Source: Polyangia bacterium (GTDB taxonomy: Bacteria; Myxococcota_A; Polyangia; Fen-1088). Taken from it: a stretch of DNA of 36,934 nt. Position numbers and translations under genes: made by a program. Of the stretch, positions 4,731 through 36,508 are shown one piece after another. The stretch covers positions 1 through 36,934 of the forward strand of contig DATLVT010000217.1 in NCBI GenBank assembly GCA_035577105.1, in the 5' to 3' direction. The notes under the pieces were generated by a model that worked only from the letters and a program-made list of their open reading frames with translations, was not told where the DNA came from and ran no database searches. How positions within the stretch are numbered: position 1 is the stretch's first letter; each line of letters starts with the position of its first letter.

Positions 4731-4888
4731 CAAGAGCCCCGGTAACTCTGGATTGCACCCGGGAACTTCCGGGGCCGCTCCCGTTTTTGGTTGAGTGAGC
4801 GTTTTCTTCCTAAAGCCGGGGCGCGTCAGCTCCGATGTTAGCCGCGATGTGCGGTACCCCCATCTTTTGATCAGTCGAGGACGACACT

Positions 4889-6457: not shown

Positions 6458-6495
6458 CGCGCCGTTTCGCTGGCGCGCGCCGTTTTCCTGTCTGT

Positions 6496-8589: not shown

Positions 8590-8642
8590 GTGTCAAGGAC
8601 TATAGCAGGTGTTGTCGACCTCACGGAGAAAGTGGCGACCGG

Positions 8643-14451: not shown

Positions 14452-15718
14452 CGGCGTCCTTCTCCTTGTCCTTGTCCCGGATGGCGCTGGCGCGGGCGAT
14501 GCGCAGGCGCAGGCGGCTCCCTTTTTCGAAGGCGAACCGCGTATCGCGCTCGTTCTGTTCCACGCTGGCCACCATTGCGCCCTGGCTGGTCACGCGCAGC
14601 GTACGGACGCCGATGATGCCGGGGCTGCGGCGCTGAAAGAAATGGCCGTGCACCGTGACGTCGCCGCCGCCGGTGATCTGGCAGCCGGCCAGAACCCCGG
14701 CCCGACCGATCACCAGCTCGGTGCCGGGCCCCAGGTTGATGACACAGTTCTCGAACAGGCTGTCGATCTCGACGCGCGCGCCGCCGTCGAAGGCCAGCGT
14801 GGCGTCGCGCAAAGTATCGCCACGCCCGAAGTAGCGCCGGTTGGCGCCGCCGCCGCCGATCTCGCCGGCCACGAAACCGCTGAGCAGGAAGGGGATCTCC
14901 GAATCGGTGAGGCGCGCGGCCCCGTCGCCCTCCGGGCTGGGATCAAGAAACGCCGCCTGCAGATCGGCGTCCAGGGCGGCGCCGGTGCCGATGAGACCCG
15001 CCACCTTGGCCCCGGTCAGGCAAGCCGCGCGCAGCGTGGCGCCGGTCAGCCGGGCGCGCCGCAGATCGGCCAGGCTGAAGTCGGTCTCTGACAGATCGGC
15101 GCGGCTGAGATCGGCCTTGACCAGCGATGCACCGCCCAGCTTGGCCCCGCGCGCCCGCACCTGGGTCAGCGAGGCGTCGTGAAACAATGCGCGGGTGAAG
15201 TCGCCTTGCACCATCGATGCGCCGCGCAGGCTGGCGTTGTTGAACTCGGCGCTGGCCGCCTTCACCCGATCCAGAGATGCGCCGGACAGGTCGGCGTGCA
15301 TGAGAGCGGCGTCGCGCAGATCGGCGCCCGTCAGGTTGGCACCCGCCAGCTGCGAGCGGCGAAGACGTGCGCCGGCCAGGTTCGCCCCGCTGAGGTTGGC
15401 CCCCTCCAGGTTGGCGCGGGTGAGGTCGGCGCCGATCAGCACCGCGCCCTCCAGGTTGGCCTTTTCCAGATCAGCGCTCTCCAGCCGGGCCTCACGCAGG
15501 TTGGCGCCGCTGAGGTTGGCTTCGCGCAGGCTGGCGTTCTTCAGGCTGGCGCCGCTGAGATCGGCGCCCCGCAGGTCGGCGCCGTCCAGATCGGCGCGCC
15601 CCAGCTCCGCGCCGGCCAGCGCGGCATTGCTGAGGTTGATGCCGCGCAGATCGGCGCGGTCCAGCTTTTCGCCACGCGCGAATCGCCGAAGGACGTCGGC
15701 GGGCGAAAGTTCTGCCAT
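14402..15718 (-). CDS. Pentapeptide-repeat protein (438 aa) with a distinct C-terminal beta-helix-like domain, copy 2
   Basis: About 250 aa of A(D/N)LxG-type pentapeptide repeats (ADLRGINLSNAALAGAELGRADLDGADLRGADL...). The ATG at 15718 overlaps the upstream bactofilin stop (TGATG). Collinear paralog of 16253-17569 with identical length. Confidence 0.85.
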   Translation of the reverse strand: MAELSPADVLRRFARGEKLDRADLRGINLSNAALAGAELGRADLDGADLRGADLSGASLKNASLREANLSGANLREARLESADLEKANLEGAVLIGADLTRANLEGANLSGANLAGARLRRSQLAGANLTGADLRDAALMHADLSGASLDRVKAASAEFNNASLRGASMVQGDFTRALFHDASLTQVRARGAKLGGASLVKADLSRADLSETDFSLADLRRARLTGATLRAACLTGAKVAGLIGTGAALDADLQAAFLDPSPEGDGAARLTDSEIPFLLSGFVAGEIGGGGANRRYFGRGDTLRDATLAFDGGARVEIDSLFENCVINLGPGTELVIGRAGVLAGCQITGGGDVTVHGHFFQRRSPGIIGVRTLRVTSQGAMVASVEQNERDTRFAFEKGSRLRLRIARASAIRDKDKEKDADDRRPKRRQPRASRSA

Positions 15719-16260
15719 CAGGTCGGCGTGCTGGAGTTGGCCGGCGCGGGACGCTCGGCCCCGGCGACCGGAGCGGCGGCGGCGACGAGAGCGGCGCTGT
15801 TCTCCTTGATAGCCGTTCCGGTGTGCCCGGCGCCCGAGGCCAGCGCTTCGCGCAGGGCCGCCTCCTTGGCCGGCACCTCGCCGATTTGCAGCTCGCAGTC
15901 GAAGAGCTCGACGGCCAGCGCCCCGGTCCCAGTTCCGGTCCCAGTTCCGGTCTTGGGCGGAACAACCTCCAACGTCTTGGCGATGATCACCGTCTCGTCG
16001 CGGACGCGACCGCACAGGATCACGTCGTCGGCCTCGAAGGTCCCGGTCAAGTCACCCTTCGAGCGCAGCTCGGTGACCTTGACCTGACCGTCGACGGTGC
16101 CGCTCTCGGCGACGTCCAGCGACGGCCCGGTGATCTCGCCCTCGACCTGGCCGCGCACCAACACGGCGCAGTTCGCCGACAGCGTCCCTTTGAAGGCGGT
16201 GCCCTCTTCGATGACGGTCTTCTTTTCTGGCGCCGGGCGCGCGTTGCCTCTGTCAGCCAT
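15718..16260 (-). CDS. Bactofilin (DUF583), copy 1, with a (Thr-Gly)5 insert and an Ala-rich tail
   Basis: TVIEEGTAFKGTLSANCAVLVRGQVEGEITGPSLDVAESGTVDGQVKVTEL... is a bactofilin repeat pattern. The start overlaps the upstream pentapeptide gene by 8 nt (ATGGCTGA). Confidence 0.85.
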   Translation of the reverse strand: MADRGNARPAPEKKTVIEEGTAFKGTLSANCAVLVRGQVEGEITGPSLDVAESGTVDGQVKVTELRSKGDLTGTFEADDVILCGRVRDETVIIAKTLEVVPPKTGTGTGTGTGALAVELFDCELQIGEVPAKEAALREALASGAGHTGTAIKENSAALVAAAAPVAGAERPAPANSSTPT

Positions 16261-17569
16261 GGGTTAACCGCCCTTCCTGTCTTTCTTTTGCTTTTGCTTT
16301 TGCCTTGGCTTCGGCTTCCGCTTCACTGCTGCTGGCCTTCATGACCTTGAGACGCAGGCGGCAGCCCCGTTCGAAGGCGAACCGGGTGGGCGTGGCCGCC
16401 TGTTGCACCGACGCGTCCAGCGCGCCGCGCCCGGTGACCACCAGGGCGCGTGGTCCGACGATCCCGGGGCGTTCGCGCTCGAAAAATTGTCCGTGCACGG
16501 TGATGTCGCCGGCGCCCGAGATCTGACAGTCGGCCAGCACGCCCGACTGACCGACCACGACGGCCGCCCCCTCGCCCAGGACGATCGAGCAGTTTTCAAA
16601 GACGCTGTCGATCTCCACCTTGGCGCCGGCGGTGAACTCCAGCGTGGCGTTGCGCAGGATGTCTCCGCGCCCGAAATAACGTCGGTCGCCGGCCGGCCTG
16701 TCGCGGGTGCCGGCTCCTGGCGCGCGGGCGCCGCCTAGCAGGGCCGGGATCTCGCCGTCGGTGACGCGGGCGGAGCCGTTTCCTTCCGGGCTGGCGTCGA
16801 CCCAGGTGACCTGCAGATCGCCGACGTTGGCGCTGCCGCCCATCACGCCGGCAACCTTGGCGCCGGTCAGCGTGGCGCCTTGAAAGACCGTGCCGGCCAG
16901 GTGCGCCTGCCGAAGATCGGCGTTGGCCAGGTCAGCCTTGGAGAGATCGGTGCGCGTCAGGTCGGCCTTGCGCAACACCGCGCCGCCCATCTTGGCGCCG
17001 GTGGCCCGTGCCTCGACCAGCTGCGCGTCCAGGAATTGCGCGCGCGTGAAATCACCGCCGGTCAGCGTGGCGGCGCGCAGGTTGGCCCCGGTGAAGTCCG
17101 CGGCGGTCGCCTTGACGTTGCCGAGGTGCGCCTCCGCCAGCTCGGCGTGCACCAGGATCGCTTCCCGCAGGTCGGCGCCGGTCAGGTTCGCCGTCCCCAG
17201 CTGGGCGAATCCCAGGCGCGCGCCGGTCAGCGTGGCCCCGGTCAGGTTGGCCCCCTCCAGGTTGGCGCGCAGCAGGTTGGCGCCGGCCAGGTTGGCGCGC
17301 TCCAGGTTCGCCTCTTCAAGGTCGGCGCATTCAAGATTGCACTCGCGCAGGTCGGCGCCGATCAGGTGGGCCTCGCGCAGGTTGGCGTTCTTCAGCACGG
17401 CGCCGCGCAGGTTGGCGCCCTCCAGGTTGGCCCCTTCCAGATCAGCCCGGGCCAGCGCCGCCGACGGCAGGGGCGCCTTCGCCAGATCGATCCCGCGCAG
17501 GTCGGCGCGCTCCAGTTTCTCGGCGCGCCGGAACCTCTCCAAAACCTGATCACGGGTCAGCTCGGCCAT
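16253..17569 (-). CDS. Pentapeptide-repeat protein (438 aa) with a distinct C-terminal beta-helix-like domain, copy 1
   Basis: ADLRGIDLAKAPL...ADLEGANLEGANLRGAVLKNANLREAHL... repeats. GGAGA lies 7 nt upstream of the ATG at 17569. C-terminal (EA)3(KA)4 tail. Confidence 0.85.
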   Translation of the reverse strand: MAELTRDQVLERFRRAEKLERADLRGIDLAKAPLPSAALARADLEGANLEGANLRGAVLKNANLREAHLIGADLRECNLECADLEEANLERANLAGANLLRANLEGANLTGATLTGARLGFAQLGTANLTGADLREAILVHAELAEAHLGNVKATAADFTGANLRAATLTGGDFTRAQFLDAQLVEARATGAKMGGAVLRKADLTRTDLSKADLANADLRQAHLAGTVFQGATLTGAKVAGVMGGSANVGDLQVTWVDASPEGNGSARVTDGEIPALLGGARAPGAGTRDRPAGDRRYFGRGDILRNATLEFTAGAKVEIDSVFENCSIVLGEGAAVVVGQSGVLADCQISGAGDITVHGQFFERERPGIVGPRALVVTGRGALDASVQQAATPTRFAFERGCRLRLKVMKASSSEAEAEAKAKAKAKERQEGRLTHG

Positions 17570-17584
17570 CGGTGTTTCTCCATC

Positions 17585-20970: not shown

Positions 20971-22653
20971 CTACGAAGCCGGCGGTGGGGGCGGGCCTGG
21001 CGTACTGGGTGGTGACGGCGTGGCGGTGGCTGGCAGACCTCGACGGGCCATCACCTGTTCAAAGCTGGCGCGCAGACCGGGGACGTTGGCGGCCAGCAGA
21101 CCGAACTCGCGCTTGGGGATGCTGAGCACGGTCATCGCGTCCAGGCACCGAACCGTGGCGTTGCGGGGCGCGCTGCCGAGGAGGGCCATCTCGCCGAAGC
21201 ATTCGCCGGGGCCCAGCGTGGTCAGCACCTGCTCGCCGCCGCGCTCGCCTTTGCTGTTGTCGCCCGGGACGGCGAGGTGTCTGCGCACCACCTCGGCCTT
21301 GCCGGACAGGAGGATGTAGACGCGATCGCCCAGCTCGCCTTCGTTGAACACCGTCTGACCCGGTTCGAAATGTTCGTGCGTGGCGCCGCCGCTGGCGCCC
21401 AGGCGCAGCTGGATCAGCTCCGTCGGCAGGATCAGGTCCAGCGTCCACGAGCTGGCCACCTTGAGCCGCCGGCCCCAGCCGGGGAGCTTTGACAGATAGA
21501 TCGTCCGCCACAAGAACCAGGCCAGAAAGCCGGAGATCCCGATGCCGAAGATCTCGGCCACGGCGTTGCGTCGCCCCAGCGAGCCCATCTTGCCCAGCCC
21601 CTTGAAGTCAAAGGCGCGCAGCCCGCCGCCGTTGATGGTGGCGACGATGTTGTCGGCGACCAGGTGGGCCTGGCGGGTGGCGTGCTGGGCCGTGGGCGGG
21701 CAGGGCGTGCCGTCGGCGGTGGGCACCGACGCGCAGTCGCCCACCGCCCAGACGTCTGGCCGGCCTTGCACCCGCAGGTTGGCGTCGACGATGAGGCGGC
21801 CATTCTTCGTCTTCGGCAACGGCAGCGTGTCGACCAGCGGGTGCGGCGACGACGGGATGGTCGAGACCAGCGTGCGCGTCGGGATGGCGCTGCCATCCGA
21901 CAGGATGGCTGCTTCGGCGGTGGCCGCCTTCAGGCGCTGGTTCAGCACCAGCTCGACGCCGCGCCGGCGCAAGATCTTGGCGGCGAAGGCGCGCAGCTTG
22001 GGGGCTACCTCGGGGAGGATTTCGCCTTGTCCGTGCACCAGCACCACACGAATGTCCGCGGGGTTGATGCGGCGATAGAGGCGGGCGATGCCGCGCACGA
22101 AATCGTTCAGCTCGGCCACCACCTCGACGCCGGAGAAACCACCGCCTGCCACGACGAAGGTCAGGAGCTGCTTGCGCAGGACCGGGTCGTCGTCCTCGAT
22201 GTCGGCCTCCTCCAGGGCGCGGATGGCGCGGGCGCGCAGCTCCAGGGCGTCGGACAGGTTCTTGAACGGAAGGGCGTGCTCGGGCAATCCTGGCAGACCC
22301 CGAAAATCGGTGACGGTGCCAGGCGCCAGCACCAGGTGATCGTAATGTTCGACGTGGGCGTGCGGGCGGAAGCCGGGGGCGGCGCTGATGGTCTGGTTGG
22401 CGATGTCGATCGACTCGACGTCCCGGACCACCACGTGCGTGCGGCGCAGCAGCCGGCGCAGCGGGCTGACCACATCGGTGAGCCCGATGGTTCCGGAGAT
22501 CACCTCGGGCAGCATCGGCTGAAACACAAAGTAGTTGTCGCGGCTGAAAAGAAGGATCTCCCAGTCGTCGCGCCGGCCCAGCTTGCGCTCCAGCGCCTGC
22601 GCGGCGTAGACGCCGGCGAATCCGCCTCCCACCACCACGATGCGCTTTCTCAT
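20971..22653 (-). CDS. Type II NADH dehydrogenase (NDH-2, FAD/NAD(P) oxidoreductase) fused to a C-terminal cyclic-nucleotide-binding domain
   Basis: Two Rossmann motifs (IVVVGGGFAGVY and VVAGGGFSGVE). After a membrane-proximal segment, a CNB domain follows: FNEGELGDRVYILLSGKAEV...GECFGEMALLGSAPRNATVRCLD. Confidence 0.85.
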   Translation of the reverse strand: MRKRIVVVGGGFAGVYAAQALERKLGRRDDWEILLFSRDNYFVFQPMLPEVISGTIGLTDVVSPLRRLLRRTHVVVRDVESIDIANQTISAAPGFRPHAHVEHYDHLVLAPGTVTDFRGLPGLPEHALPFKNLSDALELRARAIRALEEADIEDDDPVLRKQLLTFVVAGGGFSGVEVVAELNDFVRGIARLYRRINPADIRVVLVHGQGEILPEVAPKLRAFAAKILRRRGVELVLNQRLKAATAEAAILSDGSAIPTRTLVSTIPSSPHPLVDTLPLPKTKNGRLIVDANLRVQGRPDVWAVGDCASVPTADGTPCPPTAQHATRQAHLVADNIVATINGGGLRAFDFKGLGKMGSLGRRNAVAEIFGIGISGFLAWFLWRTIYLSKLPGWGRRLKVASSWTLDLILPTELIQLRLGASGGATHEHFEPGQTVFNEGELGDRVYILLSGKAEVVRRHLAVPGDNSKGERGGEQVLTTLGPGECFGEMALLGSAPRNATVRCLDAMTVLSIPKREFGLLAANVPGLRASFEQVMARRGLPATATPSPPSTPGPPPPPAS

Positions 22654-22698
22654 CTGCCGCGTGCCCTTTCTCGCCCGTCGGGATCTTCGTGCGCCACA

Positions 22699-22725
22699 GT
22701 TACGTCCGCCGACGCGCGCGGTTAC
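22699..22725 (-). promoter_or_regulatory. Candidate ECF (SigF-type) promoter of the NDH-2/cNMP gene: GTAACC-N15-CGTAAC
   Basis: On the minus strand the -35 GTAACC is at 22725-22720, the spacer is 15 nt, and the -10 CGTAAC is at 22704-22699. The -10 ends 45 nt before the ATG at 22653. Same architecture as the three other sites in the window. Confidence 0.55.
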
Positions 22726-22743
22726 GGGGATAACCGACGGTGC

Positions 22744-24831
22744 TCATTTCGATGCGGCCACCCAGGTGCCATCCCAGTCGGCCGGTGGCGGCTCCTGTTT
22801 CCAGTGCCGGCATCGATCGGCCAGGACGGCGCCCGCCGCATCATCGGTCAGCGGCGCCAGAAGGTCGAGCGCCTCCTGGAATTCGCGGCGGTGGGCGGCA
22901 GCCAGCGCATCTTCATATGGCTTCAGCCTGGCCAGGCGCCGGGTGGCCAGGGGATCGCCGGCGACGCCCAGCAGTTCGAAGATGAAGATCGATTGGTTGC
23001 GTCCCTTGACGGCCACCCGATCCAGGCGGCGAAACAGAAACTGCTCACCGACGCGGTCGCGGATCTCCTCGCTGACCAGGATGGTGGTGCCGTAGACCTT
23101 GTTGAGGCCTTCCAGGCGGGCGGCCAGGTTCACGCCGTCGCCCATCGCGGTGTAACTGAGCCGGTCGGGGGCGCCGAAATGCCCGACCATCACCTGGGCG
23201 GCGTGCAGGCCAAAGCGGGTGCGCCACGGCGCGAGACCGGCCTTCTGCCACCACGGCGATCGCCCCAGCTCGTCGGTGGCGGCGTCGCAGGTCAGGGCGG
23301 CCCGGCAGGCGGCCACCGCGTGGTCCGCGACGGGATCGGGCGCGTTCCAGATCACCATCAGCGCGTCGCCGATGTACTTGTCGACGGTGCCGCCCAGCCC
23401 CTCGACGGCGGCGGTGGCCGCCTGCAGATACCGGCCGAGAGCGTCGGCCAGCAGGGGCGGGGGCAGCTTTTCGGCGTGGCTGGTGAAATCGGCGATGTCG
23501 GTGAACATCAGCGACACATCCAGAAGGTCGGCGCCCAGCACGGGGTCGCGTCCGCTTTCGTAAAGGCGCCTGACCAGGCCGACCGGGACGTATTTCACCA
23601 TCGCCCGCAAGGCGGTCTTGGCGCGTTCCACGCTGCCCAGCGCGCCCCGCACCTCGCCGAAGGGCGACTGCACGGGCGCGGCGTCGAAGGTGAAGCGCCG
23701 CATTCCCTCGGTGGCCGTCACCAGGGCGCGCATGCCCCGACCGACGGTGCGCGCGCCGCCCAGCCCGACGGCCGCGATGACCAGCACGACCAGCACCATC
23801 AGGCCCAGCAGGCGATCGCGCGCGTGGGCGATGGCGCCGACATAGGCGCTGGCGGGGACGACGATCCCGACCAGCCACTGCTGGGCCCGCCCCTGGGCGA
23901 CCGGGACCAGGGTGACGAAGTAGGGTTCACCGTCGACGTCGAGGCGCGCGCCGCCCACCGCTCCGCCGCGCGCCAGAGCCAGCGCGGCCTGGACCGGCGG
24001 CGGGATCGTGGCGGGGACCACGCGCAGATCGCCGTCGGGATCGGGGCGGCCGTCCTCGTCGACGGCGGTGTACAGATCGGCCTTTTGCAGGCGGGTGACC
24101 AGCCGTCCCCCGGCGTCGCAGATGAAGAGGCGATGGGGATCGTCGCCGCTCTTCATCGACGCAAAGCGGTCCAGCGTGTCGCTGGTGATCCCGGCGCGCA
24201 AGACGCCCACGAATTTGCCCTGGGGATCAAAGATGGCCTTCTGAACCGTCATCACCTTGCGGCGCAAGCCGGCGGTCAGCGCGGCATCGCCCTCGCGATA
24301 GGAGAGGTCGCTCCACAGACTGCGCCCCCGCCACTCCTGATGAGCGGCGGCGCGAAAGGTGTCGTGACGGGTCGGATCGGCCGCGCTGTCGGCGGCCACG
24401 TCGGTCAGCAGGCGCCCGCCGATCTGGCCGTCATGCTCGCGAAAGACGGCGATCTGTCGGCGGCCCTGGGCCCACAAGACCATGGTCCCGTCGTCCTCGT
24501 AACGTTTGAAGAGCCCGCTGGTCAGGGTCAGGTCGGTCAGACCGCGCAGGGCAATCAACTCGGCGGTCAGATAGCGACGGACGGCGAGCGGATCTCCGAC
24601 GACCACGGCCCCCACGGTCAGCGCCTGCTCGAAATCAGCGACCGCCCTTTCGGCGGTGCCCAGATCGGATTCCAGCGCGGCGGCGATGCGGGTGGCGGTG
24701 TCGTGGCGCGCGCTCTCGCCGACCTTGATCACCGCCTGGTTGGCGGTGCGCACGGCCACCAGCAGCACGGCGCCCGCCAGCAGGGCCAGCGCCACCACGA
24801 CGAACGCGAAGAAGCGCGGCAGCGTCAGCAC
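22744..24831 (-). CDS. Membrane sensor class III adenylate/guanylate cyclase (TM - periplasmic Cache-like region - TM - HAMP - cyclase)
   Basis: Two TM segments flank about 300 aa, followed by a HAMP-like linker. Cyclase motifs are VSLMFTDIADFTSHAE, VDKYIGDALMVIWNAP and GDGVNLAARLEG. GTG start lies 16 nt after the anti-sigma stop. Confidence 0.85.
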   Translation of the reverse strand: MLTLPRFFAFVVVALALLAGAVLLVAVRTANQAVIKVGESARHDTATRIAAALESDLGTAERAVADFEQALTVGAVVVGDPLAVRRYLTAELIALRGLTDLTLTSGLFKRYEDDGTMVLWAQGRRQIAVFREHDGQIGGRLLTDVAADSAADPTRHDTFRAAAHQEWRGRSLWSDLSYREGDAALTAGLRRKVMTVQKAIFDPQGKFVGVLRAGITSDTLDRFASMKSGDDPHRLFICDAGGRLVTRLQKADLYTAVDEDGRPDPDGDLRVVPATIPPPVQAALALARGGAVGGARLDVDGEPYFVTLVPVAQGRAQQWLVGIVVPASAYVGAIAHARDRLLGLMVLVVLVIAAVGLGGARTVGRGMRALVTATEGMRRFTFDAAPVQSPFGEVRGALGSVERAKTALRAMVKYVPVGLVRRLYESGRDPVLGADLLDVSLMFTDIADFTSHAEKLPPPLLADALGRYLQAATAAVEGLGGTVDKYIGDALMVIWNAPDPVADHAVAACRAALTCDAATDELGRSPWWQKAGLAPWRTRFGLHAAQVMVGHFGAPDRLSYTAMGDGVNLAARLEGLNKVYGTTILVSEEIRDRVGEQFLFRRLDRVAVKGRNQSIFIFELLGVAGDPLATRRLARLKPYEDALAAAHRREFQEALDLLAPLTDDAAGAVLADRCRHWKQEPPPADWDGTWVAASK

Positions 24832-24847
24832 GACGCGCCTGACTTCA

Positions 24848-25561
24848 TCAGCGCTCGAGCAGGCTGGGCAGCAGCGCGGCGCCGGCCGCCGCCGCCAGGA
24901 TCATCCCGCCCACGTGGGCCAGCACCACGTGATCGGTGCCGGCGAACGGGCAGATGAAATGCAACGTCAGCCCGCCCAGCGCGCCGCCCGCCGCGCCCAG
25001 GCCCATGCCCAGCCAGCGGGCCCCCACCGGCATCAGCCGCCGCAGGACCAGAAAACTGACCAGCAGCAAAACGCCGGAGACGCGAAAGACGTAGCTGATG
25101 CAGTGCAGGCACGAATCAAACAGCGTCCACCCGCGATCGGCGGGGACCATGCTGACGCCCGGGACCTGGACGGTGAAGAACAGCCCGAAGAAGAACACCA
25201 CCAGGATGGCCAGAAAGCTGATGCGCGAGGCGCGGCTGGCGCCGGGTAGAACGTCCCCGCGCCGCGGGATCAGCGCCGCCGCCAGCGACAGCACGAAGGC
25301 GGCGCCCCACAGCACCGCGCCCACGACCACCCAGATGCGAGGAAGCACCGCCAGGTCGGGACGCATGGGCCGCAGCAGCATGGTCAGCGTCGGCCAGATC
25401 AGGCCCGCCACCAGGACCACGGTGAAGGCGCCGAACCGGGAACGCATGCGCACGGGCCGCATGCCCTCGACGGCCTTGATCAGCATGGGCGCCGGTGGGG
25501 GGGGCGGGGTTCCGTCGAACCCCGAGCCCACGCCGCGGCCATTTGCGTCGTGCACGCTCAT
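24848..25561 (-). CDS. NrsF/DUF1109-family membrane anti-sigma factor
   Basis: Six-TM-like protein with Cys/His-containing segments (DSCLHCISYV and LHFICPFAGTDHVVLAHVGG). The ATG overlaps the sigma gene stop (ATGA at 25558-25561). Confidence 0.7.
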   Translation of the reverse strand: MSVHDANGRGVGSGFDGTPPPPPAPMLIKAVEGMRPVRMRSRFGAFTVVLVAGLIWPTLTMLLRPMRPDLAVLPRIWVVVGAVLWGAAFVLSLAAALIPRRGDVLPGASRASRISFLAILVVFFFGLFFTVQVPGVSMVPADRGWTLFDSCLHCISYVFRVSGVLLLVSFLVLRRLMPVGARWLGMGLGAAGGALGGLTLHFICPFAGTDHVVLAHVGGMILAAAAGAALLPSLLER

Positions 25562-26154
25562 GCGAGATCGATGTCCTCTTCGCCTTCGCCGCTCTTGCCC
25601 AGCAGCACCCGAAGCGTGACGTAGGCGCGGTGCGCGCGCAGCTTGATCGCGCCCGGCGTGCTGCCGGCGATCTGGGCCGCCTCGGCGTGGGACCGGCCGT
25701 GCACCTTGGTCAGGATCAGCGCCTGCCGCTGTTTCTCGGGCAAGTGTTGCAGAGCGGCCATGGCGGCGGCCGCGCGCGCAGACTCTGGCTGCGCCTGGGC
25801 CTCCTCTGCGGTGCCGCTGAGGTCGGCGCGCGGCGGCGACGGCAGCTGTCCGTCGACGGTCAGGCGAACGCGGCTGCGCTTGCGCTTGCGCAGCTCGTCC
25901 AGGCAGGTGCGGTGGGCAATCGTGTAGATCCACGGGATGGGATTGGCGCCGCGCACGTACGCGCCGCGGGCTTCGTGCACCTTGAGGAACGTGTGCTGCA
26001 ACAGATCCTCGGCCGCCGCCCGATCACCGATCAGGCCGCGCAGGTAGGCGAGGATCCGCGGCGCCAGCATGGCGTACAGGCGATGGAACGCAGCCACCTC
26101 GCCCGCGCAATAGCGCTCCATGACCTGGCTGGCTTCGAGGGACTCGGGATCCAT
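25558..26154 (-). CDS. ECF-type RNA polymerase sigma-70 family factor (SigF/ECF16-like by its anti-sigma partner)
   Basis: Region 2 (DLLQHTFLKVHEARGAY...WIYTIAHRTCLDELRKR) and region 4 (LPEKQRQALILTKVHGRSHAEAAQIAGSTPGAIKLRAHRA). ATG at 26154; an alternative start is at 26121. Confidence 0.85.
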   Translation of the reverse strand: MDPESLEASQVMERYCAGEVAAFHRLYAMLAPRILAYLRGLIGDRAAAEDLLQHTFLKVHEARGAYVRGANPIPWIYTIAHRTCLDELRKRKRSRVRLTVDGQLPSPPRADLSGTAEEAQAQPESARAAAAMAALQHLPEKQRQALILTKVHGRSHAEAAQIAGSTPGAIKLRAHRAYVTLRVLLGKSGEGEEDIDLA

Positions 26155-26380
26155 GGATCGCAGTCGATACCTGGTTGCTCCGCCAATTTCGGGTGATTCG
26201 CCGCTCCGGTTCGCTGTCGTGTGGCCGGTCTGGTTGGCGTGTCTGATAGGTCCGTTCTGTCCGTTGTGCCAGATCCACCAGGCCGGCCAGCACAGCGTGC
26301 CACCCTGTCTCAGCAGAGGAGGATGGAAGAGTGCCGCTGCGATCACAAGAAATTCCTGCTGGCGACGACGCTGGGCCTCG

Positions 26381-26878
26381 TCAGGTTCCGGGACGCAGGG
26401 CTGGGCTGGGCAGCGCCGCCTGGGCGCCTCTCTTGCCGCGCACCCGGGAGATCAGCGCATCCAGCGACAGCGGTCCTGCGCCGGCTACAGCCAACCACAC
26501 GAACAGGACCAGATAGCTCCACTCCTCGAACCCGAACAGCGAAGTGAAATCATTGATGTCATCTCGCTTGGCGGTGATGATGGCGATGACCATGGTGAAA
26601 GCCAAGGGCAGGGCGACCAGCCGCGTGCCGAGGCCCAGGAGGATCAAGATGCCGCCGAAGAACTCCGTGCAGGCGGTGAGGCGCGCGTTGAAACCGGGCA
26701 TGGGGATCCCGAGATCAGTGAAGAACTGGGTGACCTTGTCCAGGCTGTGCAGCTTGCCCCAGCCGGTACCGATGAAGACGATGCCCACGGTCAGGCGGGC
26801 CAGCGTCGGACCCAGGAAAGATAACTTGTCGCCGATGGCGCGCAGACGTCCGAGCAGATTCGTGATCAGATTGGGCAT
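26381..26878 (-). CDS. DoxX-family membrane protein
   Basis: LARLTVGIVFIGTGWGKL...FFTDLGIPMPGFNARLTACTEFFGGILILLGLGTRL is a classic DoxX pattern. ATG at 26878 with GGAGGG 8 nt upstream. Confidence 0.85.
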   Translation of the reverse strand: MPNLITNLLGRLRAIGDKLSFLGPTLARLTVGIVFIGTGWGKLHSLDKVTQFFTDLGIPMPGFNARLTACTEFFGGILILLGLGTRLVALPLAFTMVIAIITAKRDDINDFTSLFGFEEWSYLVLFVWLAVAGAGPLSLDALISRVRGKRGAQAALPSPALRPGT

Positions 26879-26900
26879 CAATCGTCCCTCCAGTGGGTGT

Positions 26901-26927
26901 TCTACGGCGCCACTTGCCTGAGGTTAC
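26901..26927 (-). promoter_or_regulatory. Candidate ECF (SigF-type) promoter of the doxX-sigma-antisigma(-cyclase) operon: GTAACC-N15-CGTAGA
   Basis: On the minus strand the -35 GTAACC is at 26927-26922, the spacer is 15 nt, and the -10 CGTAGA is at 26906-26901. The -10 ends 22 nt before the ATG at 26878, with an SD in between. Confidence 0.6.
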
Positions 26928-26944
26928 GGAAAAAGAAAGCCAGC

Positions 26945-26971
26945 GTAACCCGTGGGAAGGCGCGGCGTAGA
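26945..26971 (+). promoter_or_regulatory. Candidate ECF (SigF-type) promoter of the GH63 / debranching-enzyme / DUF1223 operon: GTAACC-N15-CGTAGA
   Basis: On the plus strand the -35 GTAACC is at 26945-26950, the spacer is 15 nt, and the -10 CGTAGA is at 26966-26971. The first possible start codon (ATG 26979) follows only 7 nt later. Confidence 0.6.
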
Positions 26972-26978
26972 GCCCACA

Positions 26979-29821
<2,843 letters not shown>

Positions 29822-29825
<4 letters not shown>

Positions 29826-31858
29826 GCCGCGCCGAGCAGGAGTGGCTGGAGACCGACGGGCTGGGGGGATTTGCCTCGGGCCCGGTGACCGGCCCGCGCC
29901 GCCGCCGCTATCACGGCCTGCTGGTGGCGGCCACGGCGCCGCCCACCGGCCGCATGATGCTGGTCAGCGGGTTCGAGGCAACGGTCGACACGCCGGGGGG
30001 ACGGTTCCTGCTGTCGGCGCAGCGCTATGCGCCGGACGTCGTCACCGGCGACGGCGAGCGCAACATCGAATCGTTCACCAGCGATCCGTGGCCGTCGTGG
30101 GTCTTTCGGCTGCCCGACGGCACCCGCATCGCCCACGAGCTGTTCATGCGTGCCGGCGCGCCGCAGATCTATCTGTCGTGGCGGCTGCTGGCCGGCTCGC
30201 GCGCCCCGTCGCCGGCGCCCGAGCTGGTCTGGGCGCGGCTGCGCGTGCGTCCTTTGCTGGCCGGCCGAGATTTTCACGCCTTGATGCACGAGAACCCGGC
30301 CTTCTGCTTCGATCCCGAGATCAAAGGCGGCCAGTTTCGCTATCGTCCCTACGCCGGAGGGACGTCTGTCGTCGTCGCGGCCAGCGGCAACTACCAGCAT
30401 CAGCCGTACTGGTTTCGAAACTTCGTCTACGACGAGGAGCGGCGCCGCGGGCTGGATTTCACCGAGGATCTGGCGTCGCCAGGCGAATGGGAGTTCGAGC
30501 TGGGCGAGGGCGAAGCGAGCATGATCTTTGGCGCCGAAACGCCCGGACGCGCGCCCGCCTTGGTCGCCGCCCCGGCGCGCGAGGCGCTGGAGGCGGCGCG
30601 TACGGCCGAGCGGGCGCGCCGCGCGGGATTCCCCACGCGCCTGGAGAGATCGGCCGATCAGTACCTGGTGGCGCGGCGGAGCGGGCGCACCATCATCGCC
30701 GGGTATCCGTGGTTCGGTGACTGGGGGCGCGACACGTTCATCGCCATGCGCGGTCTGTGTCTGGCCACCGGACGCGTGACGGAGGCGGTTGACGTGCTGG
30801 CGGCGTGGGCGCCCACCGTCTCGCAAGGGATGCTGCCCAACTACTTCGCCGACGCCGGCGGCGCGCCCGAGTACAACACCGTGGACGCGTCGCTGTGGTA
30901 CGCCGTGGTGGTCGCCGAGACGATTGCCGCGGCGGGTGCCACGCTGGGCGCCGAGGTCGCGCGCCAGCTGCGTGAGGCCGTCGAGGCGATCCTCGCCGGG
31001 TACGCCGCCGGCACCCGTTACGGCATCCGCGCCACCGACGACGGTCTGCTGGCGGCCGGCGTGGCCGGTCAGCAGTTGACCTGGATGGACGCCCGCGTCG
31101 ACGGCCGCGAGATCACCCCCCGCATCGGCAAGCCGGTCGAGGTGCAGGCGTTGTGGCTGAACGCGCTGGCGGCCGGCGCCGTCTTGCAGACGCCGTCGGG
31201 CGCGCGCTGGACGGAGCTGCTGGCCCGCGGCCGGCGCAGCTTCGAGCGGCGCTTCTGGAACGAAGCGCGCGGGTGTCTGTACGATGTGGTCGACGTCGAT
31301 CATCAGCCGGGGGCCGTCGACGCCCGCTTGCGCCCCAATCAGATCCTGGCCGTCGGGGGATTGCCGCTGGCGCTGCTGTCAGGCGATCGCGCTCGCCGTG
31401 TCGTCGAGGTGGTGGCCGCGTCGCTGCTGACGCCGCTGGGGCTGCGGTCGCTGGCGCCGGGGGAGAACGACTATTGCCCGCGCTATGAAGGCGGCGTGGT
31501 CCAGCGCGACGGCGCCTATCATCAAGGGACGGTCTGGCCCTGGCTGATCGGGCCTTTTGTCGAGGCGTACCTGCGGGTGTACGGCGGCGGGGCCGCCGAC
31601 AGGCGTGCCGCGCGCGAACGGTTCGTCCAGCCGATCCTGCGCCACCTGGACGAGGCCGGCCTGGGTCATGTCTCCGAGATCGCCGACGCCGAGCTGCCCC
31701 ACACGCCGCGCGGCTGTCCGTTTCAGGCCTGGTCGCTGGGAGAGCTGCTGCGTCTGGAACGAACGGTTCTCGCCGACGGGCGCGTGGCCCGCGGCGGTGA
31801 CCTCACCCGCGACGTGGCGTCGACCGCGGCGGTGGAATCGCCGACGGAGGGGCCATGA
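29822..31858 (+). CDS. Glycogen-debranching-enzyme-type amylo-alpha-1,6-glucosidase (GDE_N + GDE_C)
   Basis: [30 protein letters not shown]-terminal signature, plus [14 protein letters not shown] and [13 protein letters not shown] (alpha/alpha)6 motifs. The GTG start overlaps the upstream stop (GTGA at 29822-29825). Confidence 0.85.
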
Positions 31859-32718
31859 AGGACGTGAGAACGACGACCACGATGATGCGGGCGGTGGGGT
31901 TGCTGGGCGCCTTCGCCTGCGCCGTCGCCTGCGTAGGGTGCGTCCCCAGGGCCAGCGGCGCGGCGCCGGGCGGCGGCGGCGACCGGTCCGCCGCGGGCCG
32001 GACCGTCCTGGTCGAGCTCTTCACCTCGCAAGGGTGCAGCTCGTGCCCGGCGGCCGACGCCTTCGTGCGGGATTTTCCCCGCCTCGGCCTCGGTCGCGAT
32101 CGAGTCGTGCCACTGACCTTTCACGTCGACTACTGGGACGATCTCGGCTGGAAGGACCCCTTCGCCTCGAAGGCGTTCACCGATCGACAGCGCCACTATG
32201 CGGACCTTGGTCGCCTGCGCAGCCCGGAGGGCGAGGATGGCTTACAAGGTATTTACACACCGCAGATGGTCGTCGACGGGGCGGTTCATTTTTCGGGGCG
32301 GCGGCGCGACGTCGCCCTCAAGGAGATCCGCAAGGCGGCGGCCGCGCCCGGGTTGGTCGACCTGGACGGCCAGGCGATGCTGCACGGCGACCAGGCCCAG
32401 GTGGCGGTCCGCCTGACCGCCCGCACCGCGGAAGCCTTCGCCCAACCCTGGCGGCTGTTCGTGGTGGTGGCGGCGCGGTCGGCCCGCACCCACGTCACCC
32501 ACGGAGAGAACAGCGGCGACACGCTGGAGGAAGCGGCCGTCGTCCGGTCGCTCTCCGAACCGGTGCGGATCGCTTCGGCCCCGGCCGAACCGATCACCAT
32601 CACCGTGACCAAGCCGGCGGACCTCCCCTGGTCAGCGCTGGAGCTTGACGCTGTCCTGGCTTCGGAATCGAGTTGGCAGGTGGGCGCCGTGCGCGCGATC
32701 GGATTGCCCACGCTGTGA
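31855..32718 (+). CDS. DUF1223 thioredoxin-fold secreted (lipo)protein
   Basis: VLVELFTSQGCSSCPAAD CxxC context and FHVDYWDDLGWKDPF, typical of DUF1223. Lipobox-like VACVGC. ATGA overlap with the upstream stop. Confidence 0.8.
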   Translation: MKDVRTTTTMMRAVGLLGAFACAVACVGCVPRASGAAPGGGGDRSAAGRTVLVELFTSQGCSSCPAADAFVRDFPRLGLGRDRVVPLTFHVDYWDDLGWKDPFASKAFTDRQRHYADLGRLRSPEGEDGLQGIYTPQMVVDGAVHFSGRRRDVALKEIRKAAAAPGLVDLDGQAMLHGDQAQVAVRLTARTAEAFAQPWRLFVVVAARSARTHVTHGENSGDTLEEAAVVRSLSEPVRIASAPAEPITITVTKPADLPWSALELDAVLASESSWQVGAVRAIGLPTL

Positions 32719-32754
32719 CCCTGGTTGATCGCAAGGATGTGAGGAGGCGCCGTG

Positions 32755-33615
32755 ATGAAAGACTATTACCCTGAGCAAGGATTGCCCGAGCCGGTCGAGC
32801 CGACCTGTCCCATCGTCAAGAGCCTGCCCGGCCAGACGGCCATCGTCACCGGGGCCAACTCTGGAATCGGGCGGGGCATCGCCATCGCCCTGGGTCACGC
32901 CGGCGCGAACGTGGTGGTCAATTACGTCACCCGCGAAGAGGAAGCCGCCAAGGTCGTCGACGAGATCGGCCGCTGCGGCGCGCGGGCCATCGCCGTGCGC
33001 GCCGACGTCAGCAACGAGTCCGAGGTGATCGCCATGTTCGCCCGCGCCGTCGAGGCCTTCGGCGCCGTCGACATCCTGGTCAACAACGCCGGCCTGCAGA
33101 AGGACGCCCCGTTCCACGAGCTGACCGTGGCCGCCTGGGAGCTGGTCATGAACGTCAACCTCAAGGGGCAGTTTCTGTGCGCGCGCGAAGCGGTGCGCGC
33201 CTTTCGCAAGCAAGGCCTGCGACCCGCCGTCTCGTGCGCGGCCGGCAAGATCATCTGCATCAGCTCGGTGCACGACATCATCCCCTGGGCCGGCCACGTC
33301 AACTACGCGGCGTCGAAGGGCGGCGTGATGATGATGATGAAATCGATCGCGCAGGAGGTGGCGCCCTATCGGATCCGCGTCAACAGCATCTCGCCGGGCG
33401 CCATCCGCACGCCCATCAACCACGACGCCTGGAGCACGCGCGACGCCTACAATTCGTTGATGACGCTGATTCCTTACAAGCGCATCGGCGAGCCAGCCGA
33501 GATCGGACGGGCCGCCGTCTGGCTGTCCTCGGACGATTCGGATTACATCACCGGCGCCACCATCTACGTCGATGGCGGCATGACTCTCTACCCCGGCTTC
33601 GAAGGCGGAGGGTAA
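32755..33615 (+). CDS. Short-chain dehydrogenase/reductase (glucose-1-dehydrogenase-like SDR)
   Basis: TGANSGIGRGIA cofactor motif, NNAG, and a YAASKGG catalytic Tyr-x3-Lys. GAGGAGG lies 7 nt upstream of the ATG at 32755. Confidence 0.85.
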   Translation: MKDYYPEQGLPEPVEPTCPIVKSLPGQTAIVTGANSGIGRGIAIALGHAGANVVVNYVTREEEAAKVVDEIGRCGARAIAVRADVSNESEVIAMFARAVEAFGAVDILVNNAGLQKDAPFHELTVAAWELVMNVNLKGQFLCAREAVRAFRKQGLRPAVSCAAGKIICISSVHDIIPWAGHVNYAASKGGVMMMMKSIAQEVAPYRIRVNSISPGAIRTPINHDAWSTRDAYNSLMTLIPYKRIGEPAEIGRAAVWLSSDDSDYITGATIYVDGGMTLYPGFEGGG

Positions 33616-33789
33616 ATCGCACGGCGGGGCTCTCGACCGACGGCCGACGATCCGGGCCGCTGGCTATGCCGAGGCTGCGCTTTCGCTCCTCCCGTATGAC
33701 AGATACGCTCCGGTGCGGTTCTCGCCTCGGCTACGCCAGCGACCAGGCAGTCCGATCGGAAGTTTCTAATTAGAGGGGTAGATACAAGA

Positions 33790-33826
33790 ACGTCCTCGCC
33801 ACCAGGCGTGCTGGCGACGAGGACGT
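33790..33826. terminator. Imperfect GC-rich hairpin downstream of the 6-Cys peptide gene, between convergent genes (candidate terminator)
   Basis: ACGTCCTCG...CGAGGACGT forms a 9-bp outer stem with an inner CCAG/CTGG stem. On the minus strand it is followed by GTTCTTGTATCT. The surrounding intergenic region is AT-richer than the rest of the window. Confidence 0.4.
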
Positions 33827-33844
33827 CATCGATGAACGGAAAGA

Positions 33845-34105
33845 CTATTTCTTTTCTTCGCCGGCGGCGCCGACGGTGCCGCCCTTGGCCTTGCACTGCT
33901 TCTCGGACATCTCCGTCCAGCCTTTGCCCTTGCAGCCGTTCTGGCCCTTGCACGCGTTGTCGGCGCCCTTGCAGCCGCCCTTGCCCTTGCACGCGTTGAC
34001 GCCTTCACAGTGAACCTTGCCGGCCGTCTTGGCGGAGACCACGGCCGGAGCCGCGGCCAGGAAACCGGCGGCCATCGCTGCGATCAGTGCACCCTTCGTC
34101 GTCAT
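33845..34105 (-). CDS. Secreted 6-Cys Lys/Gly-rich small protein, bufferin-like (BufA2 / 6-Cys class RiPP-precursor-like)
   Basis: Sec signal peptide MTTKGALIAAMAAGFLAAAPAVVSA. Core is VHCEGVNACKGKGGCKGADNACKGQNGCKGKGWTEMSEKQCKAKGG, with 6 Cys in repeated CKGxxxC spacing. AAGGAG lies 7 nt upstream of the second ATG (34105). Confidence 0.7.
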   Translation of the reverse strand: MTTKGALIAAMAAGFLAAAPAVVSAKTAGKVHCEGVNACKGKGGCKGADNACKGQNGCKGKGWTEMSEKQCKAKGGTVGAAGEEKK

Positions 34106-34179
34106 GCTCATTCTCCTTTTTGACCAGTCCCCCTGTTTGGGAACATCCCGTTCAGGTTTGGGTACCGAATAGTACTCGT

Positions 34180-34206
34180 CCTACGCCGTCCCCGGCAGAT
34201 GGTTAC
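34180..34206 (-). promoter_or_regulatory. Candidate ECF (SigF-type) promoter of the 6-Cys peptide gene: GTAACC-N15-CGTAGG
   Basis: On the minus strand the -35 GTAACC is at 34206-34201, the spacer is 15 nt, and the -10 CGTAGG is at 34185-34180. The -10 ends 74 nt before the ATG at 34105. Confidence 0.55.
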
Positions 34207-34254: not shown

Positions 34255-34593
34255 TCAGGTGCCGAGAACGCGGTCGAGCTGGAAAAGCTTGAGCATGGCC
34301 AGCGGCTGCTGCTCTGCCCCCGAGACCGACAGGTCGCACCCGTCCTTGCGCAGCTGCTCGTAGAGCTGGGCGATCACGCGGACGCCGTGTCCGTCGATGA
34401 TGCGCAGGCGCGACAGATCGACGACCACGCTGGGGGGCTTTCCAGCCAGCAGGATCTCCAGGGCGGAGCGAACCTGGGGGACCGTCAGCGCGTCCAGGAC
34501 ACCTTCGATCCAGACGCGCGTCACCGTTCCGTCTATCGAAACAGAAACGTTGCCGCTCTTTTTAGTCTCTACTGCGTTCTGAGTCGTTACCAT
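34255..34593 (-). CDS. STAS-domain protein (SpoIIAA-like anti-sigma-factor antagonist)
   Basis: 112 aa. IEGVLDALTVPQVRSALEILLAGKPPSVVVDLSRLRIIDGHGVRVIAQL shows the typical STAS layout. Confidence 0.8.
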   Translation of the reverse strand: MVTTQNAVETKKSGNVSVSIDGTVTRVWIEGVLDALTVPQVRSALEILLAGKPPSVVVDLSRLRIIDGHGVRVIAQLYEQLRKDGCDLSVSGAEQQPLAMLKLFQLDRVLGT

Positions 34594-34640
34594 TCGAAAC
34601 CTATTTCACCATTATCCGCGGCGGCGAATGAGAATACCAG

Positions 34641-35480
34641 TTACATCGGTGCAACGTCTTTTCCTCTTTGCAAACGCCTGATGATGACCAGCAGCCCGAA
34701 GGCGACCACGACCAGGATGACGGACAGCGCCTGAGCGGTTCGCAGGTCGCTCTCCAGCGCCGAATAGATCGCCAGCGGTAAAGTTTGCGTCCGGCCGACC
34801 ATGTTGCCGGCGAACATCAGGGTGGCCCCGAACTCGCCCAGGGCCCGTGCCCAGCTCATCGCGGCGCCGGCCACCAGGCCGGGACGTGCCAGCGGCAGCC
34901 CGACCCGGAAGAACACCCGCGCTGGCGACGCACCCAGGCTGCGCGCCACCGCCAGCATGTTGACGTCCAACCGGGCGAAGGCGGCCGTCGCCGCCTGGAG
35001 ATAAAACGGCGCGGCCACGAACACTTGCGCCATCACCACGGCCGTCGCCGTGAAGGCGACGCCCATTCCGGCCCGATTCAATCCGGCTCCCACCAGGCCC
35101 CGCCTTCCGAACGTCAGCAGAAGGGCGATGCCCGCCACTGCGGGTGGGATAACCGCTGGTAACTGCAGCGCGGTTTCGATCCAGCGGGCGGTTCGCGAAC
35201 GCGTCCGGCCAAGCCACCAGGCAAGCGGGGTTCCGCAAACGACCACGACCAGCAGCGCGATGCCCGAGGTCAGCAAGCTCAGGGCCAGGGCCGGCGCCAC
35301 CAGCTGCTGTGACAGGCCGGCTCTCAACCCGCCGGGGGTGGTGCTGGCGATCAACGCGATGGTGGGCAGCACCAGAAAGACGGTCAATGTTGCCGACAAG
35401 ACAACAGCGGCCGGCAGCACCGCAGGCCAGCGGCCGATGCGACGGGCGACCGGGCCGCCGGATAGCGGCGGCTCGGTCAC
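34641..35480 (-). CDS. modB: Molybdate ABC transporter permease
   Basis: MetI-like permease with LQLPAVIPPAVAGIALLLTFGRRG and ARSLGASPARVFFRVGLPLARPG (EAA-type loop). The GTG start overlaps the modA stop (GTGA at 35477-35480). Confidence 0.8.
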   Translation of the reverse strand: MTEPPLSGGPVARRIGRWPAVLPAAVVLSATLTVFLVLPTIALIASTTPGGLRAGLSQQLVAPALALSLLTSGIALLVVVVCGTPLAWWLGRTRSRTARWIETALQLPAVIPPAVAGIALLLTFGRRGLVGAGLNRAGMGVAFTATAVVMAQVFVAAPFYLQAATAAFARLDVNMLAVARSLGASPARVFFRVGLPLARPGLVAGAAMSWARALGEFGATLMFAGNMVGRTQTLPLAIYSALESDLRTAQALSVILVVVAFGLLVIIRRLQRGKDVAPM

Positions 35481-36340
35481 GGTTTGCGCTCGCCGGCCCG
35501 GAATCCGTACTGTCCCAGGACCGCTTGCCCGTCGGCGGACTGGACGAAATCGCACCAGTCGTTGGCCAGGCCCAGGGACTGGGCCGGCCCCGGCTGCCCG
35601 GTCGCCTTGACAACGGCCAGCGCGTACTCGGCGACGACATTGATCGCGGCGGGGATCTCGATCGCTTCCACCGATCCGTGGGCGGCCGCGGCGTCGGTGC
35701 GGTAGACGATGCCGGCATCGGCCTCGCCCAGCGCCACCTTGGCCAGCACCTGACGGACGTTCAACTCGCGCGAGGCGACATGCTGTTCCAGCGTGCGGGT
35801 GAAGGCGTTCCCGTACATGGGGGCGGAACGGTCGAAGATGGCCAGCGTGTAGCGGCCGATGGGAACCTCCGGCGCGCCGATCACCAGCCGTCGCGCCCTG
35901 GTCAGATCAGCGAAGGACCTGAGGCCGCCAGGATTTCCGCGCGGGACGATCACCACCGGCAGGTTGCGAGCGAAGATGCGCGGGCCATCGACCAGCCCCT
36001 GCTGCGCCAGCGCCGTGGCCGACGCCAGATCGGCGCTGGCGAAGACATCGGCTCTGGCGCCCTGCTGGATCTGAAAGCGCAGCTCCTGGCTGCCGGCCAG
36101 ATTGAACCGGACGCGCAGGTTCGCGTGCCGCGCTTCGAAGGTGCGCGCCAGCGCTTCGAAGCTCTCGCGCAAGGACGCCGCCGCAAAGACCACCAACTCG
36201 CGCGGGGGGGGCGCCTTGGGTTCGGCGGGGGCGCTGCCCGATGTTCCCGACACGACGGCGAGGGCGACCAGCCAGCCGATCGTGGCCAGCAACCGACGGT
36301 GGCGTGTCCGTCTGCTCTGGCGTTGCTGGGTGGTGGCCAT
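35477..36340 (-). CDS. modA: Molybdate ABC transporter periplasmic substrate-binding protein
   Basis: LVVFAAASLRESFEALARTFEARH...NLAGSQELRFQIQQGARADVFASAD is a ModA signature. Arg-rich signal peptide from ATG 36340 (SRRTRHRRLLATIGWLVALAVV). The upstream ATG at 36433 is less likely. Confidence 0.8.
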   Translation of the reverse strand: MATTQQRQSRRTRHRRLLATIGWLVALAVVSGTSGSAPAEPKAPPPRELVVFAAASLRESFEALARTFEARHANLRVRFNLAGSQELRFQIQQGARADVFASADLASATALAQQGLVDGPRIFARNLPVVIVPRGNPGGLRSFADLTRARRLVIGAPEVPIGRYTLAIFDRSAPMYGNAFTRTLEQHVASRELNVRQVLAKVALGEADAGIVYRTDAAAAHGSVEAIEIPAAINVVAEYALAVVKATGQPGPAQSLGLANDWCDFVQSADGQAVLGQYGFRAGERKP

Positions 36341-36508
36341 CGGCGACGGCGTCGAATCTACGCAGCGCCACCAGGCAGCGCAACTTGCTGGCGGTCGGCC
36401 CCGCAGGGCAGGAGGGAGACGCGCCGTGGCCAATACGGTGAGCGTCTCTCGTGCACCGCTCTCGGTGCACTAGCCGGCCGTCGGCGACAGAGGTAGGAAT
36501 ACCCGAAC

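Follow-up and report, generated by a model that had tools for sequence, protein, structure and literature searches.

A stand-alone BufA2-type bufferin precursor gene with a putative SigF-type promoter in a Polyangia bacterium

Introduction

The locus described here raises the question of what becomes of a bufferin precursor whose gene lies apart from the genes for the enzymes expected to modify it: is the peptide matured in trans, or does it remain unmodified? Bufferins, which are copper-buffering RiPPs, were described only recently and form a very large family. For bufferin 2 of Caulobacter vibrioides (CCNA_03001, BufB2/BufC2), the BufA2 precursor is encoded in one operon with an MNIO and a DUF2063 protein; a disulfide joins Cys-I to Cys-VI and each of the four central cysteines loses 4 Da, giving a total of -18 Da; the evidence for thiooxazoles in that study comes from Buf1 (PMC11626156). 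BufB/BufC recognise the core of their substrate and not its signal peptide, and SigF/NrsF controls both the buf1 and the buf2 operons of Caulobacter (PMC11626156). Antoine et al., 2025 reported that "sizeable proportions" of Buf1 and Buf2 precursors have no association with an MNIO gene, and the question of whether stand-alone Buf2 precursors are modified in trans or unmodified was raised there (PMC12452194). The same survey found that MNIO subgroups track precursor families and that, of 864 complete genomes with Buf2 genes, none lacks an MNIO gene (PMC12452194).

Here we analyse a stretch of 36,934 nt (36.9 kb; hereafter the window) from a Polyangia bacterium, a member, unlike Caulobacter, of the Myxococcota, in which a bufA2-type gene stands alone. 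A first-pass annotation, made from the sequence letters, had described this gene as an orphan bufferin-like precursor gene under an ECF-type promoter, to be served by a maturase from elsewhere or else to encode an unmodified metal buffer.

Results

The precursor gene and its product

The open reading frame at 33845-34111 on the minus strand encodes 88 aa from an ATG at 34111, and a second ATG lies at 34105 (Table 1). We chose the second start because AAGGAG stands 7 nt before it and because the first ATG is not conserved: in an alignment of the upstream regions the first reads ACG in the orthologue L013, whereas the second is invariant, as is the AAGGAG across the five orthologous sequences. 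The 86-aa product is therefore the likely one. It reads MTTKGALIAAMAAGFLAAAPAVVSA for the predicted signal peptide, followed by KTAGKVHCEGVNACKGKGGCKGADNACKGQNGCKGKGWTEMSEKQCKAKGGTVGAAGEEKK for the core. By inspection, the predicted signal peptide has a Lys in its n-region and a 19-residue hydrophobic stretch with a GRAVY of 2.05, and it aligns with the signal peptides of BufA2 homologues. The core contains 6 Cys (C35, C41, C47, C54, C60 and C73 in the 88-aa numbering), 13 Lys and 14 Gly, with a pI of 9.3 and a computed mass of 6096.9 Da unmodified or ~6078.8 Da (-18 Da) with four thiooxazoles and one disulfide. The earlier description of an 86-aa product with a Sec signal peptide and a Lys/Gly-rich, six-Cys core thus agrees with the reading frame, the position of the ribosome-binding site, the conservation of the start and the sequence on inspection.

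Table 1. Features of the bufA2 locus and of the promoter set in the window.
Feature	Position	Strand	Remarks
bufA2-type precursor gene	33845-34105	-	86 aa and stop; NF050166 match, RBS spacing, start conservation
Sec signal peptide, predicted	34031-34105	-	25 aa; MTTK, hydrophobic stretch, VSA before K
Core peptide	33848-34030	-	61 aa; six Cys, invariant in 92 homologues
RBS AAGGAG	34113-34118	-	7 nt before ATG 34105; 1 nt before ATG 34111
Promoter-like GTAACC-N15-CGTAGG	34180-34206	-	ahead of bufA2; 95 nt before the 88-aa start
Terminator-like hairpin, 17-bp stem	33789-33827	-	18 nt past the bufA2 stop; between convergent bufA2 and SDR
GTAACC-N15-CGTAGA	26945-26971	+	ahead of GH63-like, GDE, DUF1223 and SDR genes; conserved in L009
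GTAACC-N15-CGTAGA	26901-26927	-	ahead of DoxX-sigma-NrsF; conserved in L009 and L013
DoxX/HvfX-like gene	26381-26878	-	Pfam DoxX; NF050144 HvfX 74.5 bits, just below cut-off of 80
ECF sigma factor gene	25558 to about 26160	-	Pfam Sigma70_r2/r4
NrsF anti-sigma gene	24848 to about 25486	-	PF06532, 51.4 bits, cut-off 26.8
GTAACC-N15-CGTAAC	22699-22725	-	ahead of NDH-2-like flavoprotein with cNMP-binding domain

The peptide belongs to the BufA2 (Buf_6/12Cys) bufferin precursor family. The bufferin-class assignment, which the first-pass annotation had made and proposed to check against family models, is borne out by the NCBIfam equivalog NF050166 (Cu_RiPP_BufA2, "BufA2 family periplasmic bufferin-type metallophore"), which the peptide matches with 84.7 bits against a cut-off of 60 over profile positions 4-78 of 79. 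Pfam gave nothing significant for the peptide, its sole match, to DUF7640, lying below threshold; some homologues have precomputed matches to PF10048 (DUF2282). A search of 5.8 billion proteins found 1433 relatives, and the six cysteines and their flanking Gly/Asn residues are invariant in alignments of 20 and of 92 homologues. An AF2 model, with a mean pLDDT of only 58, places a strand at residues 33-36 (with C35), a second strand at 65-68 and a helix at 70-75 (with C73). The fold described for BufA1 and BufA2 has Cys-I on strand 1, a second strand, and Cys-VI on a short helix (PMC11626156). Searching the PDB with the peptide sequence returned chance matches only and no solved relative.

The gap downstream of bufA2 is only 229 nt and contains the terminator-like hairpin; such hairpins are not rare (1.2 expected in shuffled sequence), and it is the position that counts. 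An Rfam scan of the whole window gave no match, and thus no known riboswitch or leader in the 5' UTR of ~70 nt. Judged from these sequence elements, with a promoter motif, a ribosome-binding site and a putative terminator, bufA2 appears to be a complete single-gene unit.

The genomic neighbourhood

Candidate genes were called by codon-position GC, and ~40 open reading frames on both strands were scanned against Pfam. Neither PF05114 (MNIO, DUF692, BufB) nor PF09836 (DUF2063, BufC) was found among these ~40 reading frames of the window. Using BufB and BufC queries from four related Polyangia loci, tblastn against all six frames of the window gave no match at E<=1e-5 and, at E<=10, only short matches of at most 30 bits. 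The absence of DUF692 and DUF2063 genes from the 37 kb, as first reported, therefore stands. We also considered relics of bufB or bufC flanking bufA2 and rejected them: the tblastn matches are noise, and the downstream gap is occupied by the hairpin.

As first described, bufA2 lies alone between a STAS gene upstream and a convergent SDR gene downstream. On the same strand upstream are genes for a ModA-like binding protein, an ABC permease and the STAS protein; downstream, the SDR gene is preceded on its own strand by genes for a DUF1223 protein, a GDE-type debranching enzyme and a GH63/MGH1-like hydrolase. At 34255-36433, the ModA-like and permease genes are followed by the STAS-domain gene in place of an ATPase gene, and this order directly upstream of bufA2 is kept in relatives (L003 7711-9873). 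The DUF1223 gene (31855-32718), whose product is a secreted protein with a CxxC motif, is conserved beside stand-alone bufA2. A DUF1223 gene also adjoins a sigma-bufA2-bufB-bufC-DoxX cluster in an unrelated MAG (L032 2159-2701), which hints that the protein has a thiol/disulfide function in the periplasm connected with bufferins. Elsewhere in the window, a bactofilin gene lies between the genes for two long pentapeptide-repeat proteins (14402-17584) and Ser/Thr kinases are encoded at 4871-8592, a gene content that is consistent with a Myxococcota origin.

The promoter motif and the sigma/NrsF regulator

The window contains four copies of the motif GTAACC-N15-CGTA, where 0.03 would be expected; 0 of 100 shuffles reached four, and allowing one mismatch adds a single, doubtful site. 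Every exact copy lies just upstream of a gene start. The first-pass annotation had given the shared promoter as GTAACC-N15-CGTAGG; the motif is real, but its CGTAGG ending is found only at bufA2, the other three copies ending in CGTAGA, CGTAGA and CGTAAC. The sigma-F site of Caulobacter is GTAACC-N16-CGAA (PMC3511200). Its -35 element is identical to that of the window motif, whereas the spacing (N15 in the window) and the -10 element (CGTA in the window) differ. From this match we infer a putative SigF/ECF-type promoter, and hence sigma dependence, for bufA2.

The ECF sigma gene and then nrsF lie on adjacent minus-strand reading frames ~7 kb from bufA2; together with the DoxX gene, which had been placed there from the start and which the Pfam matches (DoxX, Sigma70_r2/r4, NrsF) bear out, they form a unit (24848-26878) that we presume to be the regulator of the promoter set. 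The GH63-like, GDE, DUF1223 and SDR genes behind the plus-strand promoter extend up to bufA2. The promoter that precedes the SDR gene of L003 has no counterpart at the equivalent position of the window. With its four sites, the region 20971-34206 looks like a SigF-type regulon island. To our knowledge, neither the GH63-like operon nor the NDH-2-like flavoprotein has a counterpart among the SigF targets of Caulobacter.

Two further observations concern this region. In the GH63-operon promoter, 7 nt separate the end of the -10 element from an in-frame ATG at 26979 (26966-26981), and the mRNA of this operon may be leaderless. In addition, a dCache adenylate/guanylate cyclase gene starts 16 nt past the nrsF stop on the same strand (22744-24850) and is followed by the motif-bearing gene for the flavoprotein with a cNMP-binding domain, which suggests a cyclic-nucleotide branch of the ECF response.

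Orthologues and selection

A scan of one genome per GTDB species yielded 352 BufA2-encoding stretches, 80 of which we examined as loci. The closest genome found is the MAG Myxococcales bacterium BP_637 (L009), with 99% peptide identity and ~90% DNA identity over 7 kb; its gene order from STAS to DoxX is that of the window, and all three promoters within the contig are conserved. An identical peptide occurs only on two short JGI contigs, whose DNA is ~89.5% identical to the window. The stand-alone arrangement is kept in L003 (MAG SMAG_U5423; 89% peptide identity) and in L013 (SMAG_U14507), a locus that lacks the SDR and GH63 genes and has bufA2 only ~3 kb away from DoxX-sigma. Synteny, promoter and ribosome-binding site are preserved in the orthologues of four related Polyangia assemblies.

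The upstream regions of these orthologues differ in the spacer and flanks but not in the -35 element, the -10 element or the ribosome-binding site. The reading frame is intact in all five versions of the gene, and dN/dS is 0.07-0.17, with flanks 75-90% identical. Such low ratios, together with the invariant promoter elements and ribosome-binding site, show that bufA2 is maintained by selection. The synonymous sites are themselves unusually conserved between the window and L001 (1229-1489): the two coding sequences have only 3 synonymous differences (dS 0.05), with flanks ~89.5% identical.

Canonical operons in related genomes

BP_637 has a second bufA2 on another contig (L024), whose product is 66% identical to the stand-alone peptide and matches NF050166 with 77.6 bits. 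This gene is directly followed by BufB (NF050167, 376.8 bits, cut-off 310) and then BufC, and the operon is preceded at -69 by GTAACG-N15-CGTA. The same pairing is found in SMAG_U5423, which carries the stand-alone L003 and the canonical L006; the latter encodes P0092 (68% identical) and then an MNIO (PF05114) and a DUF2063 protein (PF09836), with GTAACG-N15-CGTAGC upstream. Both canonical operons are thus preceded by GTAAC-N16-CGTA. The first-pass annotation had envisaged that a canonical operon elsewhere, with its own precursor and no genetic link to the stand-alone gene, would tell against its reading; operons with their own precursor do exist in these two relatives, and the shared promoter motif is the link. 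Between the stand-alone and the canonical precursor of one genome, the Cys domains are 78-82% identical. A further five MAGs among the 80 loci hold both a locus with no BufB/BufC nearby and a canonical locus, the flank of L027 being too short for certainty. A metagenome scan with the L024 BufB gave no contig from the samples holding L001 or L002. The host organism of the window presumably encodes a maturase too, judging from these relatives at ~90% and 77% nucleotide identity.

Subclades and frequency of stand-alone loci

A neighbour-joining tree of the core domains, built from a short alignment and of low resolution, places the stand-alone clade among peptides whose central motif is CKGADNACKGQNGC ('type I') and the canonical copies of the same genomes in a separate CHSASNACxGKNGC clade. 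We considered whether the type-I subclade is generally stand-alone and rejected this, since most type-I loci in other genomes are canonical (L010, L011, L012, L014, L016 and L017). In L012, bufA2-bufB-bufC and the sigma and DoxX genes are divergently arranged. The stand-alone gene may plausibly stem from a type-I cluster next to the sigma operon in which the precursor survived the loss of bufB and bufC.

We counted the BufA2 loci flanked by 3 kb or more on each side: 25 have no BufB/BufC in their flanks and 43 do, with 9 undecidable; approximately one third of the BufA2 loci surveyed are thus stand-alone. One clade of 81-87-aa BufA2 peptides (MTN[KR]G...; central CSTA(T/S)xGC(S/A)GQN-type) is always found with no MNIO/DUF2063 gene in its flanks, three of which are short (L025, L027, L029, L031, L043, L055, L058, L060, L061, L063-L065, L075, L078 and L089-L092). 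For two of these loci, L043 and L027, the same MAG contains a canonical cluster as well, and in L055, L060, L063, L064 and L065 a conserved GGAAC-N15-CGTC lies 207-250 nt upstream of the gene. Another stand-alone bufA2 (around P0031) sits between ECF sigma, OsmC and thioredoxin genes. Several Buf2-type clusters of Polyangia adjoin an ECF sigma gene (L012, L017, L022, L023, L030 and L032), which is followed by weak NrsF-like matches in L017 and L023.

Discussion

Based on these observations, we propose that the window gene encodes a second, stand-alone BufA2 precursor that is under SigF-type control and, after maturation in trans, is exported to serve as a copper buffer in the periplasm, and we consider this account probable. 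First, metal stress would cause NrsF to release the sigma factor, which would switch on both the stand-alone bufA2 and the canonical bufA2-bufB-bufC operon elsewhere in the genome. Subsequently, BufB (MNIO) and BufC (DUF2063) of the canonical operon would convert the four central cysteines to 5-thiooxazoles in the cytoplasm. The modified stand-alone precursor would then be exported by Sec, with signal peptidase cutting after VSA, and Cys-I and Cys-VI of the exported peptide would form a disulfide. The cell would thereby have a second bufferin isoform that chelates copper in the periplasm. In this scheme, maturation in trans, export, copper binding and sigma dependence are what we infer, whereas family membership, the anatomy of the gene, the lack of maturase genes nearby, the promoter motif set, purifying selection and the canonical operons of the nearest genomes, with their matching motif, are shown by the sequences.

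We favour co-induction and maturation in trans because no complete genome with a Buf2 gene lacks an MNIO gene, because BufB/BufC recognise the core, because the Cys domains of the two precursors of one genome are so alike, and because the relatives possess canonical operons. The comparative data thus favour a maturase acting in trans over an unmodified peptide. The weakest link is cross-recognition between BufA2 subclades, which is not guaranteed, since the two precursors belong to different subclades and MNIO subgroups track precursor families (PMC12452194). In the literature that we searched, we found no experimental modification in trans for any stand-alone bufferin precursor.

The peptide might instead be exported and never modified by an MNIO, acting under the same ECF control as a small thiol- or disulfide-rich periplasmic protein that binds metal or buffers redox state. 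No maturase gene lies within 37 kb, the subclade of the peptide is not that of the canonical precursor of its genome, MNIO subgroups correlate with precursor type, and the literature leaves 'not modified' open (PMC12452194); moreover, the stand-alone BufA2 gene beside OsmC and thioredoxin shows the family in a redox/ECF context with no MNIO, and the CxxC protein DUF1223 is a conserved neighbour in the present case. We nevertheless regard this account as unlikely, if deserving of serious attention, given that the residues around the four central cysteines are as strictly conserved as in canonical precursors and that an MNIO gene is present in every complete genome with a Buf2 gene (PMC12452194). 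Furthermore, the canonical operon of the relatives has a promoter motif matching that of the stand-alone gene, and therefore enzyme and peptide should be made together. A related and, in our view, doubtful idea is that of a functional bufferin-fold protein which lacks the MNIO modification, serves as a thiol/disulfide metal or redox buffer and is co-induced with a modified bufferin. If this were true, the stand-alone third or so of BufA2 genes would constitute a second, non-RiPP functional class within a family that is now annotated wholesale as RiPP metallophores.

It is improbable that the peptide is modified by something other than the canonical BufB/BufC, be it a precursor-less MNIO/DUF2063 pair elsewhere or a different enzyme encoded nearby. 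Type-I precursors elsewhere do pair with a BufB only ~66% identical to the type-II-linked BufB, and our genome scan, being seeded on BufA2, was blind to precursor-less bufBC; nothing points to such a pair, however, and the conserved neighbours STAS, SDR and DUF1223 are not known RiPP maturases, the SDR gene being absent in L013 in any case. That bufA2 is a decaying, non-functional remnant of a type-I bufA2BC cluster after loss of bufB and bufC is very improbable: its nearest relatives outside the lineage are indeed mostly canonical and L012 offers a plausible ancestral layout, but the frame is intact in five of five versions under purifying selection, promoter, ribosome-binding site and synteny are kept across genomes down to ~75% nucleotide identity, and the window holds no bufB or bufC relics.

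Scattered precursor genes served by one shared enzyme have a precedent in the prochlorosins and ProcM. As there, precursors from several distant loci would share a single maturase; the prochlorosins differ in their chemistry and enzyme family, in having leader peptides that are not Sec signals, and in having no shared ECF regulon.

The closest characterised relative is bufferin 2 of Caulobacter (PMC11626156), which falls in the same HMM family as the window peptide. The two have in common a Sec signal peptide (predicted here), and a 61-aa, six-Cys core, and the low-confidence model of the window peptide suggests the strand-strand-helix order predicted for the Caulobacter peptide; in both systems there is an ECF sigma/NrsF regulator, and the -35 element reads GTAACC. 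In contrast to the Caulobacter operon with its MNIO and DUF2063 genes, the window gene is monocistronic and has no maturase gene within 37 kb. Its situation is the one recorded by Antoine et al., 2025 (Fig. 3, Table 3; PMC12452194), that of a single-gene bufferin precursor apart from the MNIO, in a lineage whose genomes carry MNIO/DUF2063 elsewhere. The first-pass annotation, in presenting the orphan state as unusual, overstated the case: stand-alone Buf2 genes have been published (PMC12452194), they account for the sizeable share of loci given above, and the window gene is a fairly ordinary example of an arrangement already described for the family.

Where that survey gives frequencies only, the present analysis adds promoter, selection and subclade detail in one lineage. 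What is new here is, first, the promoter motif common to the stand-alone gene, the canonical operon and the sigma operon; second, the purifying selection on the stand-alone copy and the subclade mismatch between the two copies; and third, the Buf2 clusters of Polyangia that adjoin sigma and NrsF genes, which Antoine et al., 2025 reported in Buf1 and not in Buf2 clusters (PMC12452194).

The window gene leaves the current picture of the bufferin family unchanged. Its lineage does provide a clean test case for the modification in trans of maturase-less precursors, a point flagged in the 2025 survey (PMC12452194): a stand-alone precursor and a canonical operon of different subclades carry the same ECF-type motif, and the expected masses are defined. 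Such a test case bears on the substrate tolerance of BufB/BufC and on the practice of calling every BufA2 match a RiPP metallophore.
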